DNA of 64,000 bases, taken from assembly GCA_038882955.1 (NCBI GenBank), contig JAVZNC010000001.1, positions 256,001 through 320,000 of the forward strand. The letters are read 5' to 3'. The translations under genes were made by a program, and so were the position numbers. Under the pieces are notes generated by a model that saw only the letters and a program-made list of their open reading frames with translations, ran no database searches and had not been told where the DNA came from. The DNA is from Candidatus Bathyarchaeia archaeon. GTDB taxonomy: Archaea > Thermoproteota > Bathyarchaeia > Bathyarchaeales > Bathycorpusculaceae. Positions 9,540-32,998 of this stretch are shown here, piece by piece. How positions within the stretch are numbered: the first letter of the stretch is position 1; each line of letters opens with the position of its first letter.

Positions 9540-11144
9540 TTGACTGAAAAAATATACGTCGTGTTTGAGATAGCACTGCTTGCTGCGATATTTTTAACAA
9601 ATATCGATTCGGTGACTTTTGCCAATCCTAAAACAAACACAAATACATGGATAGTAGCTAAAGACGGTACGGGAAATTTCAGCACAATTTACGAAGCTGT
9701 ATCAAATGACAACGTATCTACTGGTGATGTAATTTTTGTACGAACAGGATTATACGCTGAAAACCTAGTTATCAGCAAGAGCATATCTTTAATCGGAGAA
9801 GATCCAGACTCAACAATAATATGTGGTGATGGTGTCAAGAGTGTTATCCACATAAACGCTGACGATGTCAAAATCATAAACTTTACCATCACTGGAAGTG
9901 GTACACTGCTATCGCATAGCGCCATATATGTTAATAGTTCCAGTCGAATTACAATAAGCTACAATAAAATAACAGGTAACAACAATGGAATCAGTCTTTT
10001 TTCTTCGGTTGATGATCTGATTTTGGGTAACACTATTAAAAATAACAGTCTCTATGGTATTTTTTCCGCAGCTTTACGCAATAGTTCAATTATCAACAAC
10101 ACTATTATAAATAACGGAAAAGGCATCGTCTTTTATACATCAACAGACAATTACATTGTAAGCAACACTATTAAGAACAGTGCTTCAGAGGGAATTTATC
10201 TCTACACTTCTAGCGATAATGTTATTTACCATAATAATTTCCAGAATACGCAACAAGCGTGGAGTGATGCGCCAAATATTTGGGATTACGCTGGTGAGGG
10301 AAATTATTGGAGTAACTATAAAGGTTCAGACTTCTACAAAGGTTTATACCAGAATGAAACGGGTAGTGATGGTATAGGTGATGAACCATATATTATTGAT
10401 AAATACAATTATGATCACTTTCCGCTTATGGGTACATGTTTGCTTTACGATATTAACTTTGAAGCTGAAAATTATCAACTAATCTTAATCAGCAATTCAA
10501 CGATTTCGAATTTTAGTTTCAGAGTTAGCATGGAAACCGGAAACAAAGTGATAAGTTTTAATGTTGTTGGGGACGATGATAGCGTTGGTTTCTGTAGAGT
10601 CTCTATTCCGACACAGCTTATGAATTATACCATCATCATACTTGTGGACTATGAAGAAGTTGCTCCAGCATTATTGAGCTCCACAGAAACATATATGAAC
10701 ATCTATTTCGCCTATACTCAAAGCATTCATACCGTTACAATGATTTCTTCAAGAACTTTAGCTCTCTACAGCGCCCTTCTTGCTGAGCATATACAACTAC
10801 AAGAAAAATTTAGCAGCTTAAATGCATCTTATTATGAACTATTAAACAATACTTTGTCGCTGCTAACTCTTTACGACGCCCTTCTTGCTGAGCATATACA
10901 ACTACAAGAAAAATTTAGCAGCTTAAATGCATCTTATTATGAACTATTAAACAATACTTTGTCGCTGCTAAATGATTATCAACAGCTCAGGAATAACTAT
11001 ACAGAGTTATACAATTTTTACAGTGAACTTTTACGAAGACACAATGAGAATTCGCAGAATATCCAAGCTTTAGTATATGCTTTCATAACTGCGATAACAA
11101 TCTTTACGGCGGTCACCATTTATTTATCAAAACAACATGTGTAA
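9540..11144 (+). CDS. Secreted, membrane-anchored right-handed beta-helix (NosD/CASH/pectin-lyase-like) surface protein with coiled-coil stalk
   Basis: Signal peptide, VAKDGTGNFSTI, repeated I.NN.I.NN..GI turns, GNYWSNY and DGIGDEPY motifs, heptad stalk, C-terminal TM helix. Confidence 0.85.
   Translation: MTEKIYVVFEIALLAAIFLTNIDSVTFANPKTNTNTWIVAKDGTGNFSTIYEAVSNDNVSTGDVIFVRTGLYAENLVISKSISLIGEDPDSTIICGDGVKSVIHINADDVKIINFTITGSGTLLSHSAIYVNSSSRITISYNKITGNNNGISLFSSVDDLILGNTIKNNSLYGIFSAALRNSSIINNTIINNGKGIVFYTSTDNYIVSNTIKNSASEGIYLYTSSDNVIYHNNFQNTQQAWSDAPNIWDYAGEGNYWSNYKGSDFYKGLYQNETGSDGIGDEPYIIDKYNYDHFPLMGTCLLYDINFEAENYQLILISNSTISNFSFRVSMETGNKVISFNVVGDDDSVGFCRVSIPTQLMNYTIIILVDYEEVAPALLSSTETYMNIYFAYTQSIHTVTMISSRTLALYSALLAEHIQLQEKFSSLNASYYELLNNTLSLLTLYDALLAEHIQLQEKFSSLNASYYELLNNTLSLLNDYQQLRNNYTELYNFYSELLRRHNENSQNIQALVYAFITAITIFTAVTIYLSKQHV
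10772..10971 (+). repeat. Intragenic tandem duplication: 95-nt identical copies with a 105-nt period
   Basis: 10772-10866 = 10877-10971; encodes ALLAEHIQLQEKFSSLNASYYELLNNTLSLL twice. Confidence 0.95.
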
Positions 11145-25957: not shown

Positions 25958-26662
25958 ATGAAAAGCCAAAGCCTAAAACTCTTGATAGAAAATTTCGGGG
26001 AAAAATATTCTGAAATTTTGGGAATAAACCTTGCAGAAGGCAAAGAAAACGAAATTTTCAAGTGGTTTCTGGCAGCAATTTTGTTCGGTGCTCCAATAAC
26101 AGAGAAAGCAGCAATAAAAACCTACAAGTGCTTCGAAGGACATGACGTGTTAACGCCAAGAAAAATTTTGGACACGGGTTGGGATGGGCTTGTTCAAATT
26201 TTGGATGAAGGAAGCTATACGCGGTACGACTTCAAAACCGCAGACAAGCTTCTAGAAACAATGAAAAACCTTGTGAAAAACTATGACGGAAGCCTAATTC
26301 GCCTTTACAACGAGTCAAAGAACATGGAGGATTTGACAAATAAACTGAAAAGCCTCGGGAAGGGTATAGGCGACGTTACAGTAAACATTTTTCTAAGGGA
26401 ACTACGCGGAATATGGGAAAAAGCCGAACCAGAACCAACAGCCCTCGTTGTTCTAGCCGCCAAAAAACTTGGAATAATTGATGAAAAGACCAAAAATGTG
26501 ACGGAAACTCTAAAGAATTTTTGGCTCAGGAACAGCGTTGCTGGAAAGTCCTTTGTAAATTTTGAAACAGCACTACTTAGAATTGGCAAAGACTATTGTA
26601 GGAAAAGGAAATGCGCCGCCTGCAAATTTAAGGCTGAGTGCCTAAACCCTGAGGCGCCTTAA
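25958..26662 (+). CDS. HhH-GPD-like DNA glycosylase family protein with C-terminal 4-Cys cluster
   Basis: KGIGDVTVNIFLRE HhH motif; CRKRKCAACKFKAEC. Confidence 0.75.
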   Translation: MKSQSLKLLIENFGEKYSEILGINLAEGKENEIFKWFLAAILFGAPITEKAAIKTYKCFEGHDVLTPRKILDTGWDGLVQILDEGSYTRYDFKTADKLLETMKNLVKNYDGSLIRLYNESKNMEDLTNKLKSLGKGIGDVTVNIFLRELRGIWEKAEPEPTALVVLAAKKLGIIDEKTKNVTETLKNFWLRNSVAGKSFVNFETALLRIGKDYCRKRKCAACKFKAECLNPEAP

Positions 26663-27383
26663 TGTAGGTTATAACTTCGATTGGACATTCTCCAGAAAGC
26701 TTCATCTTTTTCTTCCACTCCTCCCCAACCGCGATGAGTAGGAAAACCCCTGAAATTTCGGCTTTTGCCTTCCGAACCAAATTAACCAGTGCTGCTTGGG
26801 TTTCGCCAGTCTTAATCATGTCGTCAACTATTAGGACGCTGTCCCTCTTTTTTATGCTGTCCTTTGGAATGTAAAGCGTCATTGTTACGCCTGAATCCCT
26901 AAGCGCATAAGTCTCCTCAAGAAAGGCTTTTACGCCAACCTCCTTGCCCCTCTTGGCGATTACAAGGTTCACGCCCAAAGCATTTGCAACCATTGTTGCA
27001 AGTGGAATTCCATCTACAGCAGCAGTTAAAACCTTTGTTACACGTTTTCCAGCGAAATTTGCAAGCGCATGATTAGCCGCCTGCTGAAGAATAGTAAAAT
27101 CACCGATAATATCCGTATTGTCAAAATACCCTTCCTCATCAAACCTTATCCTATTACGAAGCTCGCTTTCTAAGCCAACAAGCTTTGTTAGAACTTTCCA
27201 AAGCTGCCTAGCCCGAGCGGTATTAGGCAGTACATGACCCTTCGCATAGCGGCTCAAAACAGTTACGGGTAAACCAGTTTTAGAGGCTAGTTCGCGGTAG
27301 GTTATGTTCCGCTTATACTTGGCTGTTCTAAGCATCTCAATAGTCATCAAACGAAACTTCAACTCGTCCACATGCGTATTCAT
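26628..27383 (-). CDS. HTH plus type I phosphoribosyltransferase domain (PurR-like regulator)
   Basis: TYRELASKTGLPVTVLSRY HTH; VLIVDDMIKTGET PRPP loop. Confidence 0.85.
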   Translation of the reverse strand: MNTHVDELKFRLMTIEMLRTAKYKRNITYRELASKTGLPVTVLSRYAKGHVLPNTARARQLWKVLTKLVGLESELRNRIRFDEEGYFDNTDIIGDFTILQQAANHALANFAGKRVTKVLTAAVDGIPLATMVANALGVNLVIAKRGKEVGVKAFLEETYALRDSGVTMTLYIPKDSIKKRDSVLIVDDMIKTGETQAALVNLVRKAKAEISGVFLLIAVGEEWKKKMKLSGECPIEVITYIKAPQGLGTQP

Positions 27384-27512
27384 AACAATCCCTTATACAC
27401 TGACCAGTTAAACATTAAAGCGCTTACCAATTATTATTGCACTACTAATTTAAAATTTCCGCTCAAAAACGAAACTTGAAACATAACATCGTTAGAATGG
27501 ATTCCATGGATA

Positions 27513-27923
27513 TTAACGCCAAAGCAACTTCGAATATTCAATGTATTTTTGTATAAGACCTGCACTTAACCGTCTTCCACGCCTATCTGATGGTTGGCGT
27601 GCACATAAGTGAAAAACTTGTACTTGATTGTCGCGAAAAACTTTGGAAATCTGCGCCCGTAAACCGACATATTTACTTTGAAGATAAGCAAGCTGTGTCG
27701 CAATTTCCTTTAATTCCGACGCCAGGATATTTTTCCGTTCCTCCAACTCCATAAGTTCCTGCATAAGCTGCTCTTCTCCACTATTGGTTTTCATTCCGAG
27801 ATCTATGAGTTTTTTGACAACTTCAGTATTAATTTGAATGTTTGCTTCTCTAATCAGCTCTGAAATTTCCCGGTTTCCATTTATTAAGATAACTTGCGGT
27901 TTTCTTCGCGATTTTGTTTTCAT
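27513..27923 (-). CDS. Hypothetical coiled-coil protein (4th gene of the riboswitch operon)
   Basis: Heptad-rich centre; GGTGA SD before ATG 27923. Confidence 0.65.
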   Translation of the reverse strand: MKTKSRRKPQVILINGNREISELIREANIQINTEVVKKLIDLGMKTNSGEEQLMQELMELEERKNILASELKEIATQLAYLQSKYVGLRAQISKVFRDNQVQVFHLCARQPSDRRGRRLSAGLIQKYIEYSKLLWR

Positions 27924-27936
27924 AGTTTCACCTTTT

Positions 27937-28197
27937 TTAGCGAAGGAGAGTTTCAAGTACATTGTTATCTTTAATCATCTCGTCTAGAATTTTTTCCATC
28001 CTTTTGATTTCGTCAGGTAGCTCTGTTACTTGTTTTCTTAAATTTTCTATCTGTTTCGTAAGGGAGCGGATTTCCTGCTCGAGAACATGTATTCTAAAGG
28101 ATAGCAAGCCCTTTTTAACCAGATTCATGAGGGTCTCTTGATTCCCAATTTTCTCATATAGATACGCTGGAATTGGAAGTTTTTTGACTTCACTCAT
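27937..28197 (-). CDS. Small hypothetical coiled-coil protein (3rd gene of the operon)
   Basis: Short N-terminal segment followed by heptads LEQEIRSLTKQIENLRKQV. Confidence 0.65.
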   Translation of the reverse strand: MSEVKKLPIPAYLYEKIGNQETLMNLVKKGLLSFRIHVLEQEIRSLTKQIENLRKQVTELPDEIKRMEKILDEMIKDNNVLETLLR

Positions 28198-28203
28198 AAC
28201 TTA

Positions 28204-28914
28204 TCAGCCTTCACGAAGTCTTAATCCATGTCTCCCAACAAGTTTTCCAACACCCTTCAATGTAGTCTCTTTCACAGCTTTACGATCTTCTTCCGAAAAC
28301 TCATAGCTTTGTCTTCTTATATATTCAGCAAGTTCGGAATTCAATCGTCCGAGATTTTTCTTTTCCACTTCAATTACAGTTTTGATAATGTCCTGTGCTT
28401 GACTTTCCAATTTTTCTTCTATTGCACGAATTAACGCTGCAAAATGCGGAATACAGAGCCCCCTTGACTCTTTGAAAAGCTTCATAAACTCCTTATTCTG
28501 CAAAGAGAGAAGTTCCACAACTTTTTGAATATACATTTCCGTGAAGCTTGCCAAGTGAGTGCATGCTGGACATTTTTCTTCGCTTGGAAATATGTTGCGA
28601 TAAGCGTTTTTGTATCCACTTACTTTACTAATATCTAAGAGCAGTTGCTCAACAACGCTATGCATAGTTAAGGCTATTCCATGTCCGTCTGGACTTCCAG
28701 GCTTATTTGCTGCGATGAGCATTTTGTAGAAATGGTAATTGCAGAAACCTCTGCTCTCGATTATTTTCCGTCTTGACGAAGCATCCATTACTAATTCAGA
28801 AAGATACGTATCCATGAATTTGTTTTCAATCTCCTCCTCCAAAACGCATAGAAAGCATTCTTCTTCACATTCAATTGCTCTTTTAATACGAAGATAAGCT
28901 ACATCTAAACTCAT
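28204..28914 (-). CDS. DUF6062-like Cys/His metal-binding protein
   Basis: Duplicated CxxC...GxCxxH units (CFLC/GFCNYH; CPAC/GLCIPH). Confidence 0.7.
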   Translation of the reverse strand: MSLDVAYLRIKRAIECEEECFLCVLEEEIENKFMDTYLSELVMDASSRRKIIESRGFCNYHFYKMLIAANKPGSPDGHGIALTMHSVVEQLLLDISKVSGYKNAYRNIFPSEEKCPACTHLASFTEMYIQKVVELLSLQNKEFMKLFKESRGLCIPHFAALIRAIEEKLESQAQDIIKTVIEVEKKNLGRLNSELAEYIRRQSYEFSEEDRKAVKETTLKGVGKLVGRHGLRLREG

Positions 28915-28918
28915 GCAA

Positions 28919-29752
28919 TCACCATTGCTTGCTTATTATCTGTAGCACACTTACGGCGTAGAAGGTGTCCTCAAATGTTGATATCCCTAGGTCTGACCTC
29001 GCAAATCCGCCGTTTGCATTTTGGCATTTAAGGATAAATCTAATTGTGCCTTCAGGGTAAGCTGCATGTTCGCCGAGCAGATTCAGCGTCATTACCCCAT
29101 AGTAGACATGCTCCATGTACGGTGTAGAGCTGCTCGGTATAACTGTGAAGCCTCCAGAAGGCTTCTCGCATGATCTGACGTAGGTTAAGGTATTTTTGAG
29201 GGATTTAACTGGATAGCCGAGATTGTATAGTGTGGCTACTGCATGATAAGTTGCATTTAGATTGGAATATCCATAGGCGCCGAAGCCTCCATCAGCATTG
29301 TGATAGCCTAAAAGCCACTGTGCAATTTTTTCGCGGTTGATCTCTACATTGGCAATTTTGGCGAGTTCTGTCGCCATAAAAACAGTTTCAAACTCTGATG
29401 CAACTTCCACGTAAACATCCACTGCATTAAATTCCATTCGCGAAAACTGGGATAAAAGAAACTCTTTAAGCCTTTCATCCGGTTCTCGTCCACACAGCTT
29501 TAAGGCTTTAGCTACATAATAATGCGAATAAAGATCACCTGGGACAAAATTACGTAGCCAATTAACAGTCTGATCAAAGTTCGGGAAGGAAGCATTAAGC
29601 ATCTTCAAAATTGCTAATCCATAATAAGTGTCTTGCGCATTTGATTCTGTCCCACGGCAAAAAGTGTAACCTCCATCACTATTTTGCCTACAAACAACGT
29701 ATTTTACAATTTTTTCAGTCCTAAGCACTTTATTAAAATGCTCAATTTTCAT
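28919..29752 (-). CDS. Prenyltransferase/squalene-oxidase repeat (alpha/alpha barrel) protein
   Basis: Repeats QNSDGGY, HNADGGFG, EKPSGGF, QNANGGFA, each followed by a helix; start at ATG 29752 or TTG 29800. Confidence 0.8.
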   Translation of the reverse strand: MKIEHFNKVLRTEKIVKYVVCRQNSDGGYTFCRGTESNAQDTYYGLAILKMLNASFPNFDQTVNWLRNFVPGDLYSHYYVAKALKLCGREPDERLKEFLLSQFSRMEFNAVDVYVEVASEFETVFMATELAKIANVEINREKIAQWLLGYHNADGGFGAYGYSNLNATYHAVATLYNLGYPVKSLKNTLTYVRSCEKPSGGFTVIPSSSTPYMEHVYYGVMTLNLLGEHAAYPEGTIRFILKCQNANGGFARSDLGISTFEDTFYAVSVLQIISKQW

Positions 29753-29829
29753 ATCTAAGGCTATCTTGCCACTCTGACTGAACCGCCCCACTTCATGCAA
29801 CCTTACGCCACTCCATCTATTTTAATGCA

Positions 29830-29891
29830 GTAGAAGCTATCAGCCCCTGCGAATGCAGAAGCAAGGGCGGTTAAAGGCGAGCTTCATCGCC
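29830..29891 (-). promoter_or_regulatory. Fluoride riboswitch (crcB motif) aptamer
   Basis: Minus strand reads GGCGATGAAGCTCGCC-TTTAACCGCCC...GGGGCTGATAGCTTCTAC: P1 GGCGA/TCGCC, pseudoknot GAAGCT/AGCTTC, conserved GATG, AACCGC, GCTGAT and CTAC. Confidence 0.88.
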
Positions 29892-29917
29892 TATGTTTAG
29901 GCGAAATGCAAAACTAA

Positions 29918-29925
29918 CAAATAAA
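29918..29925 (-). promoter_or_regulatory. Candidate TATA box for the riboswitch transcript
   Basis: TTTATTTG on the minus strand, about 26 nt upstream of the aptamer 5' end. Confidence 0.45.
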
Positions 29926-29956
29926 CGTTATGAAAAACAAATGAAAAATTGATTAA

Positions 29957-30050
29957 CGGGCCCGCCGGGATTTGAACCCGGGATCTCCGGCTTAGAAGGC
30001 CGACGCGCTTTGTGGAATTGGCTTTTCTATCCATGCTGCGCCACGGGCCC
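29957..30050 (-). tRNA. tRNA-Arg (TCT) with a 17-19 nt intron in the D-loop
   Basis: GGGCCCG/CGGGCCC acceptor stem, GCGC/GCGC D-stem, anticodon loop CTTCTAA, CCGGG-TTCAAAT-CCCGG T-arm; extra GAAAAGCCAATTCCACAAA in the D-loop. Confidence 0.9.
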
Positions 30051-30094: not shown

Positions 30095-32998
30095 TTATTC
30101 TATGTAGATTGCTGGTCTGAAGGGTTTTGCTTGTTGCGCCCGCTTTTTAGGGTCGTAGCATTCCGGGCCTTCTTCGCTGTAAATGTATATTTCAGCTTTT
30201 AGTTCTTTTTTGAAGAATTTTTCAGCGCCTTTCAGCGTTTGGTATTCGTCTATTTTTTTGATTTGTATTAGCCTCTGTTTTCTTTCCTCTGGCAGGCGAT
30301 TGACGTCGTCCAGTATTTGGCTGAGGAACTTTGCAACTTTTTCTGCTTTGGCTTTTAGTTCAGTGTCCTCCATAAGCTCCTTCATTAAATCTTTCTGTGA
30401 AATCTTTGCTCCGACTGATTTTGCCAGAGCTCTTTGGTATATTCGCCATTTCCACGGGGCAGCAGCATAATAGTAAACTTTCGTTGGTGTTATGTTTGTA
30501 GCTTTTACAATGTTGAATGTGTCTTCTAGGACGCTCATGATTAGTGTTTCTTTTTCTTCTGCTTCGATGTCTATTTTGGACTCGTCTGGTGTCGGCCAGC
30601 TCGCCGTTGAAACGAAGTTTTCTCCGCCAAGCATTTCCCATAGTTCCTCACAAACGTGTGGGGCTACTGGTGCGAGCATTCTTATTTGGGCGTTTAGGAT
30701 TTCACTGATAACGTAGGATGCCGCACCATTGTTTGCTTCTGTCATCCGCCTCTGGTACCATTGAAAGTCTTGGTCTAGCTCGTATAGTATGGTTTGTATG
30801 GCTTTTCGCACTGCTAGTTTTTCCATGGCTTCCGTTGTCCTTTTAATGTGCCATTGCAGTCGGCTGAGCATCCACTTGTCCAAGGCTGATAGGCTTGTTT
30901 TTCTTTGCTCGTGCGTTTCTTTAGTGAAGTTTGCGATGAATTTGTGTATGCGCTCAAGTCTTTCGCGCATGGCTCTTGCAACAGCGGGGCTGAAATCTGC
31001 GTCTTGTAGCAGTTCAGCGGTTCCCAGAACGCTTAGTCTTATTGGGTCTGCCCCATATTTTTCGAGGCCTTCGCGTAGTGGTATTATGTTTCCGAAGGAT
31101 TTGCTCATTTTTGCGCCTTCCATTAGTACGTGGCCGTTTGTCACTATTTGGCGTGGCCAAAGGTTTTCTGGGAATATTGCTGTGTGGTTGAATATCATGA
31201 ATGTTAGGTGGTTTGGGATTAGCTCGTGCGCTGAATGGCGGCTGTCAAGCGGGTAGAAGTATAGGAACTCTTCTCGCATTTTCTCTAGCGTTTCTTGTTT
31301 TAGCCCTGTTTTTTCTGTGATTTCCTTGGCGTTTCCTTTTCCGAGAAAGACATAGTCAAAGACCTCGTTTGTTAGTTGTGCCGCGCCTACATTGCCTTCT
31401 TTTATGTGTCTTGCGATTGTGTAGTATGCCATATAGATAGTTGAGTCTGACAGGGACTCGATTATCCAGTCCTTGTCCCATGGAAGCCTTGTGCCCATGC
31501 CCGACTTTCTAGCGCATGCCTTTTCGTGTAGCCAGTCGATGACGTGCTCGTATTCTTTGCGCATTTCTTCTGGTAGGATTTCCATTTTTTCGAGGTTTTT
31601 GTGTGCTAGGACTTTCCATTGCGGGTTTCCGTAGTCTATGAACCATTGGTCTTCAAAGATTTTTACGATGCACTCTGTTCCGCATCGGCATTTCACTGGT
31701 CTATTCAGAAGCTCGTACATTGTTGTTGCTTTGCCCTCTGCCACAATGTCTTGTTTTACCTTGTCCTTTGCTTCGGCTACTGTTAAGCCGCAATATTTGC
31801 CAGTGTTGCTTTTCATCTTTCCATTGTGGAACTCGTGACGGTAAACCTCTTTTGTGGCATCCTCAAGCTTTGGATCTGTCTGGTCCTGGATGCCCATCTT
31901 CTTTACGACGTCGGCTGCTGGAATCTCCGAATAATCAGGCACTTCAATAAGTGAGACTGGTTTTATGGTTTCGACTTCTTCTGGTTTTATGTCGTACTCC
32001 TTTAGCATGCCAGAAGCTTTTTTGATGTTTTCAAGTGCAACTAGGTCGTATGGAGCGTGTCCTGGAACAGACATGACGACGCCGGTGGCGTTTTTTGGGT
32101 CGACGAATTCTGCGGGCAGTATAATAATCTTGTTTTTTGTTACTGGGTTTTCGACGTAGGCGCCGATTAGGCTTTTTCCTTCAAATGTTTCGATGACTTT
32201 GACTTTGTGGTTTAGGTAGGTGAGTTTTTCTGCGGCTTCCTGGCTTACAACCCATTCTTCGCCGTCAACTGTGGCTTTTACGTATTTGGCTTTTGGATTC
32301 ACCCAAATGTTTGTTACGCCGAATACTGTTTCTGGGCGGAGTGTCGCAGTTGGAAAGATGGTTTCGCCTTTTTTGAATTTTATTATTGTGAATTCGCCGA
32401 TTTCTGGCTCCACATCGCCGACCGTGTCGTGTTGACCGACGGGGTTGCCGCATTTTGGGCACCAGCCAACTGGGTGGCTTCCGCGGGTTATGTAGCCTTT
32501 TTCGCGTAGTTTTTCGAATTGCCATTCTATGAAGCGGTTGTATTGCGGGTCTATTGTCGTGAATTCGCGTCTCCAGTCTATGGAAAACCCTATTTTTTTC
32601 ATTCCTTCTTTGATTTCTTGGTGGAAATAGCGCGCCATGTTCAGCGGGTCAGTCAGCTCTTTCAGTTTTTCTTTGGGAATTTTGTATACGTTTACGAAGT
32701 CTTTGATTAGTTCTTCGTCGTTTTCTGCTAGGCGTTTTGCCATTGCCAAGACTGGTGTTCCAGTGTAGTGGAAAGCCATTGGCAATAGCACGTTGTAGCC
32801 GCGCATTCGCATGTATCTCGCATGCACGTCAGCTAACGTGTAGGTTCTTGCGTGTCCGATGTGTTGCGGCGAGTTTGGGTATGGATAGGCCACTGTTATG
32901 AAGTATTTTGGTTTTGCAGGGTCTGGGTTTGCCTCGAAAATTTTTGCTTCTTCCCAGCGCTTTTGCCATTTTTCTTCGATTTTTTTTAAAAATTCCAT
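30095..32998 (-). CDS. leuS: Leucine-tRNA ligase
   Basis: YPYPN..QHIGH, TLRPET, ESLSDSTIY, KMSKS. Confidence 0.97.
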   Translation of the reverse strand: MEFLKKIEEKWQKRWEEAKIFEANPDPAKPKYFITVAYPYPNSPQHIGHARTYTLADVHARYMRMRGYNVLLPMAFHYTGTPVLAMAKRLAENDEELIKDFVNVYKIPKEKLKELTDPLNMARYFHQEIKEGMKKIGFSIDWRREFTTIDPQYNRFIEWQFEKLREKGYITRGSHPVGWCPKCGNPVGQHDTVGDVEPEIGEFTIIKFKKGETIFPTATLRPETVFGVTNIWVNPKAKYVKATVDGEEWVVSQEAAEKLTYLNHKVKVIETFEGKSLIGAYVENPVTKNKIIILPAEFVDPKNATGVVMSVPGHAPYDLVALENIKKASGMLKEYDIKPEEVETIKPVSLIEVPDYSEIPAADVVKKMGIQDQTDPKLEDATKEVYRHEFHNGKMKSNTGKYCGLTVAEAKDKVKQDIVAEGKATTMYELLNRPVKCRCGTECIVKIFEDQWFIDYGNPQWKVLAHKNLEKMEILPEEMRKEYEHVIDWLHEKACARKSGMGTRLPWDKDWIIESLSDSTIYMAYYTIARHIKEGNVGAAQLTNEVFDYVFLGKGNAKEITEKTGLKQETLEKMREEFLYFYPLDSRHSAHELIPNHLTFMIFNHTAIFPENLWPRQIVTNGHVLMEGAKMSKSFGNIIPLREGLEKYGADPIRLSVLGTAELLQDADFSPAVARAMRERLERIHKFIANFTKETHEQRKTSLSALDKWMLSRLQWHIKRTTEAMEKLAVRKAIQTILYELDQDFQWYQRRMTEANNGAASYVISEILNAQIRMLAPVAPHVCEELWEMLGGENFVSTASWPTPDESKIDIEAEEKETLIMSVLEDTFNIVKATNITPTKVYYYAAAPWKWRIYQRALAKSVGAKISQKDLMKELMEDTELKAKAEKVAKFLSQILDDVNRLPEERKQRLIQIKKIDEYQTLKGAEKFFKKELKAEIYIYSEEGPECYDPKKRAQQAKPFRPAIYIE

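Follow-up and report, generated by a model that had tools for sequence, protein, structure and literature searches.

A fluoride riboswitch conserved with DUF6062 heads an operon of soluble proteins in a Bathyarchaeia genome

Microbial resistance to fluoride is currently explained by two families of exporters and by extra copies of fluoride-sensitive enzymes. The locus studied here raises the question of what a fluoride riboswitch controls when none of the genes behind it encodes a channel. It lies in a Bathyarchaeia genome of 1.54 Mb that is 95.6% complete (G000), of which a stretch of 64,000 nt was analysed; this whole stretch is called the window, and positions given without a contig or locus number refer to it. 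On its minus strand the riboswitch heads four genes, which code for a prenyltransferase-beta-like alpha/alpha toroid (hereafter the toroid), a member of the DUF6062 family and two small coiled-coil proteins.

The riboswitch aptamer (crcB motif, with helices P1 and P3 and a pseudoknot) occupies positions 29824-29900 of the minus strand. Searching the window with Rfam gave three matches over the curated cut-offs, and one of them was this fluoride riboswitch, with 50.2 bits (the gathering score of RF01734 is 34 bits), an E-value of 6e-11 and coverage of model positions 1-64 of 64. A preliminary description of this DNA had called a fluoride aptamer at 29830-29891 on the same strand and had suggested a covariance-model search, and this full-model match bears the call out. 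The alignment showed the conserved P1, the AACCGCC stretch, P3 and a 3' tail that forms the pseudoknot by pairing with the P1 loop. Covariation was expressed as the percentage of alignment cells with standard pairs in 21 distinct homologous leaders and compared with a control in which the partner strand was slid. The 18 pairs of P1, P3 and the pseudoknot were formed in 98.7% of the cells (42-60% in the slid control), three pairs had changed on both sides and 0 of 500 shuffles reached the observed value, so that P1 and the GAAGCT/AGCTTC pseudoknot of the preliminary description are well supported. About 25 nt ahead of the aptamer, a putative archaeal promoter with a B recognition element (BRE) and a TATA-like box was read from the sequence at 29917-29930 (minus strand). 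It consists of a TTTATTT box, which agrees with the TATA-like box proposed earlier, and an A-rich BRE-like stretch, and a comparable A-rich stretch and TTTATA-like box were present with equal spacing in 17 of the 17 related leaders inspected. It is thus confirmed that the operon is headed by a canonical fluoride riboswitch, and we infer that fluoride induces the operon. In the whole 1.54 Mb genome there were exactly two matches to RF01734, the operon aptamer among them.

Behind the aptamer, the same strand carries four open reading frames (ORFs) spaced by 4, 6 and 13 nt, which is the tight operon that had been described. The first, at 28919-29800, codes for the toroid, with 293 aa if counted from a TTG that stands 23 nt from the end of the aptamer, and the second, at 28204-28914, codes for the DUF6062 protein of 236 aa. 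They are followed by an 86-aa coiled-coil protein (27937-28197) and by a 136-aa basic coiled-coil protein (27513-27923), which would have 149 aa from an ATG at 27962; the 13-nt gap requires a start at the ATG at 27923, and an AGGTGA stands five bases ahead of this codon. The assignment of a prenyltransferase-repeat protein, a DUF6062 protein and two coiled-coil products agreed with the profile searches (PF00432 at 1.8e-25, PF19538 at 1.2e-34 and coiled-coil noise, respectively), and it also held that none of the four is a channel.

The leader contains a second conserved structure. Both the RNAalifold consensus of nine leaders and the minimum-free-energy fold of this leader predicted an alternative (OFF-state) helix. 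Its 5' strand (29858-29872, minus strand) is the 5' strand of P3 plus the following bases, and its 3' strand (29781-29794, minus strand) is a conserved stretch that lies 64 nt further downstream and makes up codons 3-7 of the toroid gene as counted from the TTG at 29800. Pair counts over the 21 leaders showed that its 14 pairs were formed in 95.5% of the cells, compared with 38-52% after sliding, and four pairs were compensatory. Because alignment columns 33-41 are used by both P3 and the alternative helix, the two are mutually exclusive, and covariation showed that both of these leader structures are maintained. Without fluoride, the long-range helix would hold the initiation region of the TTG-started toroid gene, and with fluoride, P3 and the pseudoknot would lock and the initiation region would be freed, which would make an ON switch. 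Judged from the leader sequences, such a switch would on balance most likely act on translation. Read from the TTG, the toroid frame runs without a stop into the conserved domain in most of the close relatives. Several points weigh against this account. The toroid start is uncertain, with the in-frame ATG at 29752 as an alternative to the TTG at 29800. In a duplicated leader on another contig of G000 (C8, see below) the same helix precedes a 20-codon upstream open reading frame (uORF) and lies about 50 nt before the next gene, and simple occlusion of the start codon does not account for all copies. The element is also absent from the leaders of operons that start with a NUDIX gene or directly with DUF6062.

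The link between the switch and DUF6062 recurs in other genomes, as a neighbourhood survey of the kind suggested in the preliminary description showed. A locus was counted as switched only if an Rfam-significant fluoride riboswitch lay upstream of DUF6062 on the same strand. In a sample of 401 genomes of the phylum, DUF6062 was found in 33, and 12 of the 29 loci from other genomes that were checked had the switch. A scan of all prokaryotes with one genome per species gave 80 DUF6062 loci (31 archaeal and 49 bacterial), of which 41 were switched, namely 20/31 archaeal and 21/49 bacterial ones, and the bacterial loci were labelled Nitrospirota, Planctomycetota, Chloroflexota, Clostridia, NC10, Armatimonadota and others. 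The tally of 41/80 is the sum of batches with 15/20, 5/20, 1/20 and 15/15 and of five further loci. One locus of the 15/15 batch qualifies solely through a second DUF6062 copy on the opposite strand, and the five further loci were found with a custom aptamer model (R1) at 77-90 bits on contigs that, judged by their length and coordinates, are those of Rfam-verified loci. Weak matches to R1 only, below the Rfam cut-off, were left out of the counts (L077, L081, L086, L089, L091, L108 and L118; Chloroflexota). The order switch, toroid, DUF6062 was found in 10 of the 12 switched loci of the phylum sample, often with a NUDIX hydrolase or a small protein next, and over the 80 loci the toroid stood directly upstream of DUF6062 in 21, of which 19 were switched. 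Four bacterial loci (L075, L092, L094 and L102) were monocistronic, with the switch followed by DUF6062 alone. These counts showed that the linkage of the switch with DUF6062 is conserved in two domains and that of the switch with the toroid in archaea. From this distribution, DUF6062 appears to be a core pan-prokaryotic component of fluoride regulons, with the toroid as its probable archaeal partner.

Other neighbours were counted on the DUF6062 strand within 4 kb over the same 80 loci, with names from Pfam. The most frequent were the toroid (22/80) and a major facilitator superfamily (MFS) transporter of one orthologous group (16/80), followed by crcB (10/80), NUDIX (8/80), a dynamin-like GTPase (7/80), a HEAT-repeat protein (6/80), DUF190 (5/80) and an AAA ATPase (3/80), and by enolase, an Na+/H+ exchanger, universal stress protein (USP) and pyrophosphatases with 2/80 each. 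Among these, crcB, DUF190, enolase, the pyrophosphatases and the Na+/H+ exchangers are established fluoride-regulon genes. In three close relatives a second switch and crcB stand directly behind the operon, in one of them with DUF190 too, and in another relative the operon extends further, with genes for an MFS transporter, a pyrophosphatase and a NUDIX protein. An Anaerolineae metagenome-assembled genome (MAG) carries tandem fluoride aptamers (L095, 3117-3178 and 3186-3247, plus strand; 56.3 and 51.3 bits) ahead of a crcB-DUF6062-DUF456 operon.

The explanation that we prefer, and consider probable from these comparisons, is that the toroid, DUF6062 and the coiled-coil proteins form a fluoride-inducible metalloprotein assembly in the cytoplasm that raises fluoride tolerance without export by Fluc/CrcB or CLC-F. 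The four products would act jointly, and the build of the assembly may echo that of prenyltransferases, with a helical partner beside the toroid. What it would do is a more tentative matter. It might shield or replace a step or target that depends on Mg and diphosphate and is poisoned by fluoride, an idea to which the NUDIX and pyrophosphatase genes in relatives' operons are a loose fit; direct export or gene regulation would be less likely than this role.

The preliminary description had stated that the operon has no fluoride exporter. This is true of the operon, and in G000, at 95.6% completeness, there was no match to CrcB (PF02537), while the best match to CLC (PF00654) had 19.4 bits, below the cut-off of 24.8. 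The statement is incomplete in that a partner MFS transporter stands behind the second fluoride riboswitch of G000, which was found with RF01734 on the plus strand of contig C8 at 10946-11022 (L046, 3947-4023). The C8 leader is a duplicate of the toroid leader, in which the conserved element opens the 20-codon uORF, and behind the switch come two small genes, the products of which have 94 and 107 aa and match no family, and the MFS gene; a K+/Na+-proton antiporter gene is divergent from this unit. In the relative L050 a single operon holds the switch, toroid, DUF6062, both of these small genes and an MFS gene, the product of which shares 94% identity with that of G000. We conclude from the one continuous operon of L050 that the ancestral operon was split, with duplication of the switch and leader, in the lineage of G000.

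Exporters were then compared over the 13 genomes of the phylum sample that have both the switch and DUF6062. Five have crcB, and of the other eight, one has a CLC over the cut-off, which leaves 7/13 without a CrcB or CLC match, at 79-100% completeness. In all five exporter-less genomes tested, the switch of the module was the sole RF01734 match in the genome and headed an operon without any transporter. Relatives of the partner MFS were missing at E 1e-20 in three of these five, and the other two had only matches of 27-31% identity. A crcB match in genome G234 carries five in-frame stops.

Such transporter-less, single-switch genomes disfavour an explanation that L050 and C8 would otherwise suggest, namely that the MFS transporter acts as the effector and exports fluoride, an adduct of fluoride or protons, with the toroid, DUF6062 and the small proteins as its cytoplasmic accessories or regulators and with the operon split in G000 into halves that each kept a copy of the switch. 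The L050 operon indeed runs from the switch through DUF6062 to the transporter, the C8 switch with its shared leader element stands ahead of the same small genes and transporter, and the MFS relatives near DUF6062 are both archaeal and bacterial. An NC10 contig that reads DUF6062 and an Na+/H+ exchanger as a single ORF points the same way, but it may be a frameshift artefact. The four monocistronic loci, where the switch is followed by DUF6062 alone, also speak against an accessory role, and to our knowledge no MFS transporter is known to carry fluoride. We consider this explanation unlikely.

The DUF6062 protein matched PF19538 with 120.2 bits (cut-off 27) over profile positions 1-239 of 243. 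Its two halves are copies of one CxxC...CxxH module, as an hhalign comparison of the N-terminal with the C-terminal half showed (98.3%, E 1.3e-14), and the eight positions C20, C23, C58, H61, C115, C118, C154 and H157 were invariant in 53 sequences from both domains, so the protein has two Cys3His sites. The AlphaFold 2 (AF2) model is all-helical, with a predicted local distance difference test score (pLDDT) of 89.6 and a predicted template modelling score (pTM) of 0.84. Foldseek gave 0 matches in the PDB at E <= 0.001, a wide VIA-align search of the PDB had a best Z of 5.1 (helical repeats), a profile search of PDB sequences had a best E of 0.52, and a search of the ESM Atlas returned DUF6062 clusters only. 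The family comprises 5,537 representative clusters at 50% identity (E <= 0.001), with isoelectric points (pI) of 5.6-9.8 and a median of 8.1. Compared with the Pfam family, the protein of G000 is an ordinary member, and what is added here is the regulatory context and the archaeal toroid partner. It is the single DUF6062 match in G000, with no unswitched second copy.

Longer forms were also found in the family. An Anaerolineae MAG codes for a 593-aa fusion of an N-terminal dynamin-family GTPase with a C-terminal DUF6062 (L108, 2870-4651, plus strand; hhalign 99.4%). Such fusion is not general, because in L105 the dynamin-like neighbour is a separate protein that lacks a tail resembling DUF6062. 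The NC10 ORF mentioned above (L111, 3884-5899, plus strand) joins DUF6062 and the first half of an Na+/H+ exchanger in 671 aa; the rest of the exchanger seemingly continues in other frames, so that a frameshift in the assembly may explain this ORF better than a real fusion. A search for longer proteins with a DUF6062 alignment found no fused forms, which is weak evidence, and Pfam analysis of 12 long representatives gave nothing beyond DUF6062 and matches to MAD of a coiled-coil-like kind. In Chloroflexota there are tandem DUF6062 paralogues (L077, L089 and L091), and many representatives (P0121-P0128) have 450-500 aa with two full DUF6062 units.

With its two invariant Cys3His sites and all-helical fold, DUF6062 might also be a zinc-finger-type regulator, a partner-switching or an anti-sigma-like factor that spreads fluoride control to distant genes, with the basic coiled-coil proteins (the 136-aa protein has a pI of 9.9) in the same regulatory layer; frequent bacterial units of only the switch and DUF6062 would fit this. 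We consider such a role improbable, because the same architecture is shared by archaea and bacteria despite their differing transcription machineries, because Pfam and the PDB fold and profile searches gave no helix-turn-helix (HTH) or other DNA-binding family or fold match, and because the toroid and GTPase partners recur. The pairing with the toroid is constant in archaea, one bacterium has the dynamin-like GTPase fusion, the family pI reaches from acidic to basic values, and tandem paralogues and double-length forms are common.

The toroid matched PF00432 (Prenyltrans) with 90.4 bits, compared with a cut-off of 26.5. Its AF2 model had a pLDDT of 89.6, with the first 17 residues as a disordered leader peptide. 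Foldseek gave 56 matches at E <= 0.001, headed by the beta subunits of Rab geranylgeranyltransferase (RabGGTase), geranylgeranyltransferase III (GGTase-III) and farnesyltransferase (FTase) (E 2e-8, TM up to 0.73), with GGTase-I beta and class II terpene cyclases also among them. The toroid has the PF00432 repeats and the alpha/alpha toroid fold in common with these proteins, and its gene always precedes the gene of an all-helical protein, which recalls the alpha/beta heterodimer of the prenyltransferases. It differs from the beta subunits in its identity of only 17-20%, its minimal 293-aa form and its residues at the zinc-ligand positions. In the phmmer alignment to 1dce_B, toroid residues Y228, E230 and E278 stand at the positions of the zinc ligands, which we take to be D238, C240 and H290 of 1dce_B, and these positions were acidic throughout the alignment of the toroid family, with no Cys or His. 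Nor was there a match to the PPTA alpha subunit (PF01239) in the 95.6%-complete genome. The toroid was not classed as a prenyltransferase because it lacks the zinc ligands and the genome lacks a PPTA alpha subunit. As with DUF6062, there is a single toroid gene in the genome, behind the switch, and no unswitched second copy.

The 86-aa protein had only sub-threshold matches to coiled-coil families and the 136-aa protein matched no Pfam family. Homologues of both genes follow DUF6062 in L049, L051, L062 and L063, that of the 86-aa protein directly. The profile of the 136-aa protein matched the C-terminal tails of long DUF6062 proteins in hhalign (93.2%, E 3e-7), whereas pairwise BLASTP against these tails was not significant (E 13 and 45); this is suggestive of a resemblance between the protein and the tails with which DUF6062 is fused elsewhere, with coiled-coil bias as another possible source of the match. 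A complex prediction for the toroid and DUF6062 gave a score of 0.00 in a run without controls, which speaks neither for nor against their association.

A further explanation is that the toroid and DUF6062 together constitute an enzyme which is sensitive to fluoride and of which more is made under fluoride, in the manner accepted for enolase and pyrophosphatase. Fluoride regulons do include fluoride-inhibited enzymes, relatives' operons contain enolase, pyrophosphatase and NUDIX genes, and the toroid fold belongs to enzymes that handle diphosphates. This compensation fits poorly because the family is patchy, with DUF6062 in only the 33 of 401 genomes of the phylum sample, and because the sole DUF6062 and toroid copies of G000 are both behind an ON switch; an essential enzyme that is made only under fluoride makes little sense, and the zinc ligands of the prenyltransferases are not kept. 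We regard it as very doubtful. Most improbable of all is that the RNA is a relic or senses another ligand and that the genes behind it have nothing to do with fluoride, for although the ligand and the expression of this copy were judged from sequence alone, the match covers the full model with a score well over the curated gathering score, the pseudoknot and the conserved nucleotides of the aptamer are intact, and at least 53 independent loci from two domains show the linkage, which in relatives adjoins crcB, DUF190 and enolase.

The metalloprotein assembly that we prefer also has to be weighed against several observations. The case for induction by fluoride is built on sequence comparison. 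Two sequencing runs labelled metatranscriptomic, which are flagged 'probably DNA', contain contigs that cover most of the operon and come from a relative with about 90% identity, and among the sequencing runs listed none was an RNA run carrying this DNA. There is no switch at 17/29 of the loci of the phylum sample and at 39/80 of those in the all-prokaryote scan, and five toroid-DUF6062 pairs are unswitched (L020, L029, L030, L068 and L069). The absence of exporters was read from MAGs of 79-100% completeness, and the MFS transporter is so frequent a partner that export may belong to the system. No fold or family match hints at the chemistry of DUF6062, and Cys3His sites usually hold structural zinc, not fluoride. 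In genus g28, DUF6062 has decayed with the toroid intact, which weakens the idea of an obligate pair.

The unswitched pairs come from some genomes labelled Nitrososphaeria and from other Thermoproteota genomes, and their upstream sequence is present. Decay of DUF6062 behind an intact toroid was seen in L042 (7206-7808), L044 (2888-3489) and L045 (2398-2808), in the forms of lost Cys ligands with truncation, a split into two ORFs and three in-frame TAG codons (genome G320).

A wider proposal can be made tentatively from the same comparisons. Beside the exporters and the extra enzyme copies, there may be a third, exporter-free fluoride defence, in which a soluble complex would sequester fluoride or metal-fluoride or shield Mg- and diphosphate-dependent enzymes. 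It would be the primary or only defence in Bathyarchaeia and other hot-spring archaea that have neither Fluc nor CLC-F, DUF6062 would be its universal core, bacteria included, and the leader would be a translational archaeal riboswitch that works through a long-range helix. The best sequencing runs that match this DNA are labelled hot-spring metagenomes, and the top one may be its source. Geothermal waters are commonly rich in fluoride, so these labels fit a fluoride response ecologically.

The flanks of the operon were examined for its limits and its origin. A run of five T at 27465-27469 (minus strand), about 45 nt after the last stop, was read from the sequence as a candidate archaeal terminator. 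The next gene on this strand, at 26628-27383 after a 129-nt gap, codes for an HTH and phosphoribosyltransferase protein (NCBIfam PRK08558, 'adenine phosphoribosyltransferase', 268 bits) with PurR-like architecture and an upstream gap of its own, and it is probably unrelated to the operon. On the other side, outside the operon, lies a tRNA-Arg(UCU) at about 29957-30050 (minus strand), with a partial Rfam match of 29.1 bits. ARAGORN did not see this tRNA as it stands and called tRNA-Arg(TCT) once an insert of about 18-28 nt in the D-loop region was removed in silico, which bears out the earlier statement that the operon adjoins tRNA-Arg. The insert is at a non-canonical intron position, and in the syntenic L049 a weak match to tRNA stands in this position too.

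The preliminary description had also taken the block as AT-richer and, from its place beside the tRNA, as acquired. The G+C content is 0.36-0.39 over 27500-29000 and 0.42-0.48 around it, so the dip is real, but it is only mild, and the window falls to similar lows of 0.39-0.40 elsewhere. The closest relative in the genome collection, L049, has a DUF6062 protein that is 80% identical and the same gene order, with the leucyl-tRNA synthetase (LeuRS) gene, the tRNA, the switch, the four operon genes and four downstream genes. On this synteny a recent horizontal acquisition of the operon was rejected, and the mild AT bias does not support it either. The patchy distribution across domains suggests transfer over long times, with no recent insertion here. 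The LeuRS of the window (30095-32998, minus strand) is only 47.5% identical to that of L049 (2-2344), compared with 92% for the phosphoribosyltransferase and 70-78% for other flanking genes, a difference that the replacement of either LeuRS gene may explain.

Compared with known systems, the locus has both familiar and new features. In the paper on the fluoride riboswitch class (Weinberg 2010, PMC2864571), the expression platform of many bacterial crcB-motif RNAs is an overlapping intrinsic terminator. The RNA described here agrees with the class in its full-model aptamer, its place in the 5' leader of same-strand genes and the ON logic that would be expected; it differs in the BRE/TATA promoter and in a 14-bp helix between P3 and the first codons in place of the terminator, and in that the genes under its control code for the toroid, DUF6062 and coiled-coil proteins. 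Control by a riboswitch is common to this operon and the Fluc/CrcB, CLC-F, enolase and pyrophosphatase operons (PMC7266159). The FRM operon of Enterobacter cloacae (PMC5533749) is a classical fluoride-resistance operon too. The DUF6062 operons of relatives contain or adjoin genes of such operons (crcB, DUF190, enolase, pyrophosphatases, Na+/H+ exchangers and USP), whereas neither the operon studied here nor the genome G000 has CrcB or a CLC over the cut-off, and the products of the operon are soluble without assigned activity. In Thermococcus kodakarensis, a transcript was detected for a fluoride riboswitch upstream of TK0513 (PMC4247193). There, too, the first downstream gene is not crcB, but crcB is next door as TK0514, while G000 has none. 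The literature searched contained no mention of DUF6062, and no link of a fluoride riboswitch to these genes was found in it; gene tables or supplements of earlier riboswitch papers might name such hypothetical proteins.

Taken together, a large DUF6062 family stands behind fluoride switches at about half of the loci surveyed, archaeal and bacterial alike. In several archaeal genomes, DUF6062 and the toroid are the whole detectable fluoride regulon, with no known exporter found. The leader of the toroid gene offers a compact, covariation-supported expression platform for studying the action of archaeal riboswitches, the mechanisms of which are poorly known, and the exporter-less carriers make a non-export response to fluoride testable with four small soluble proteins.

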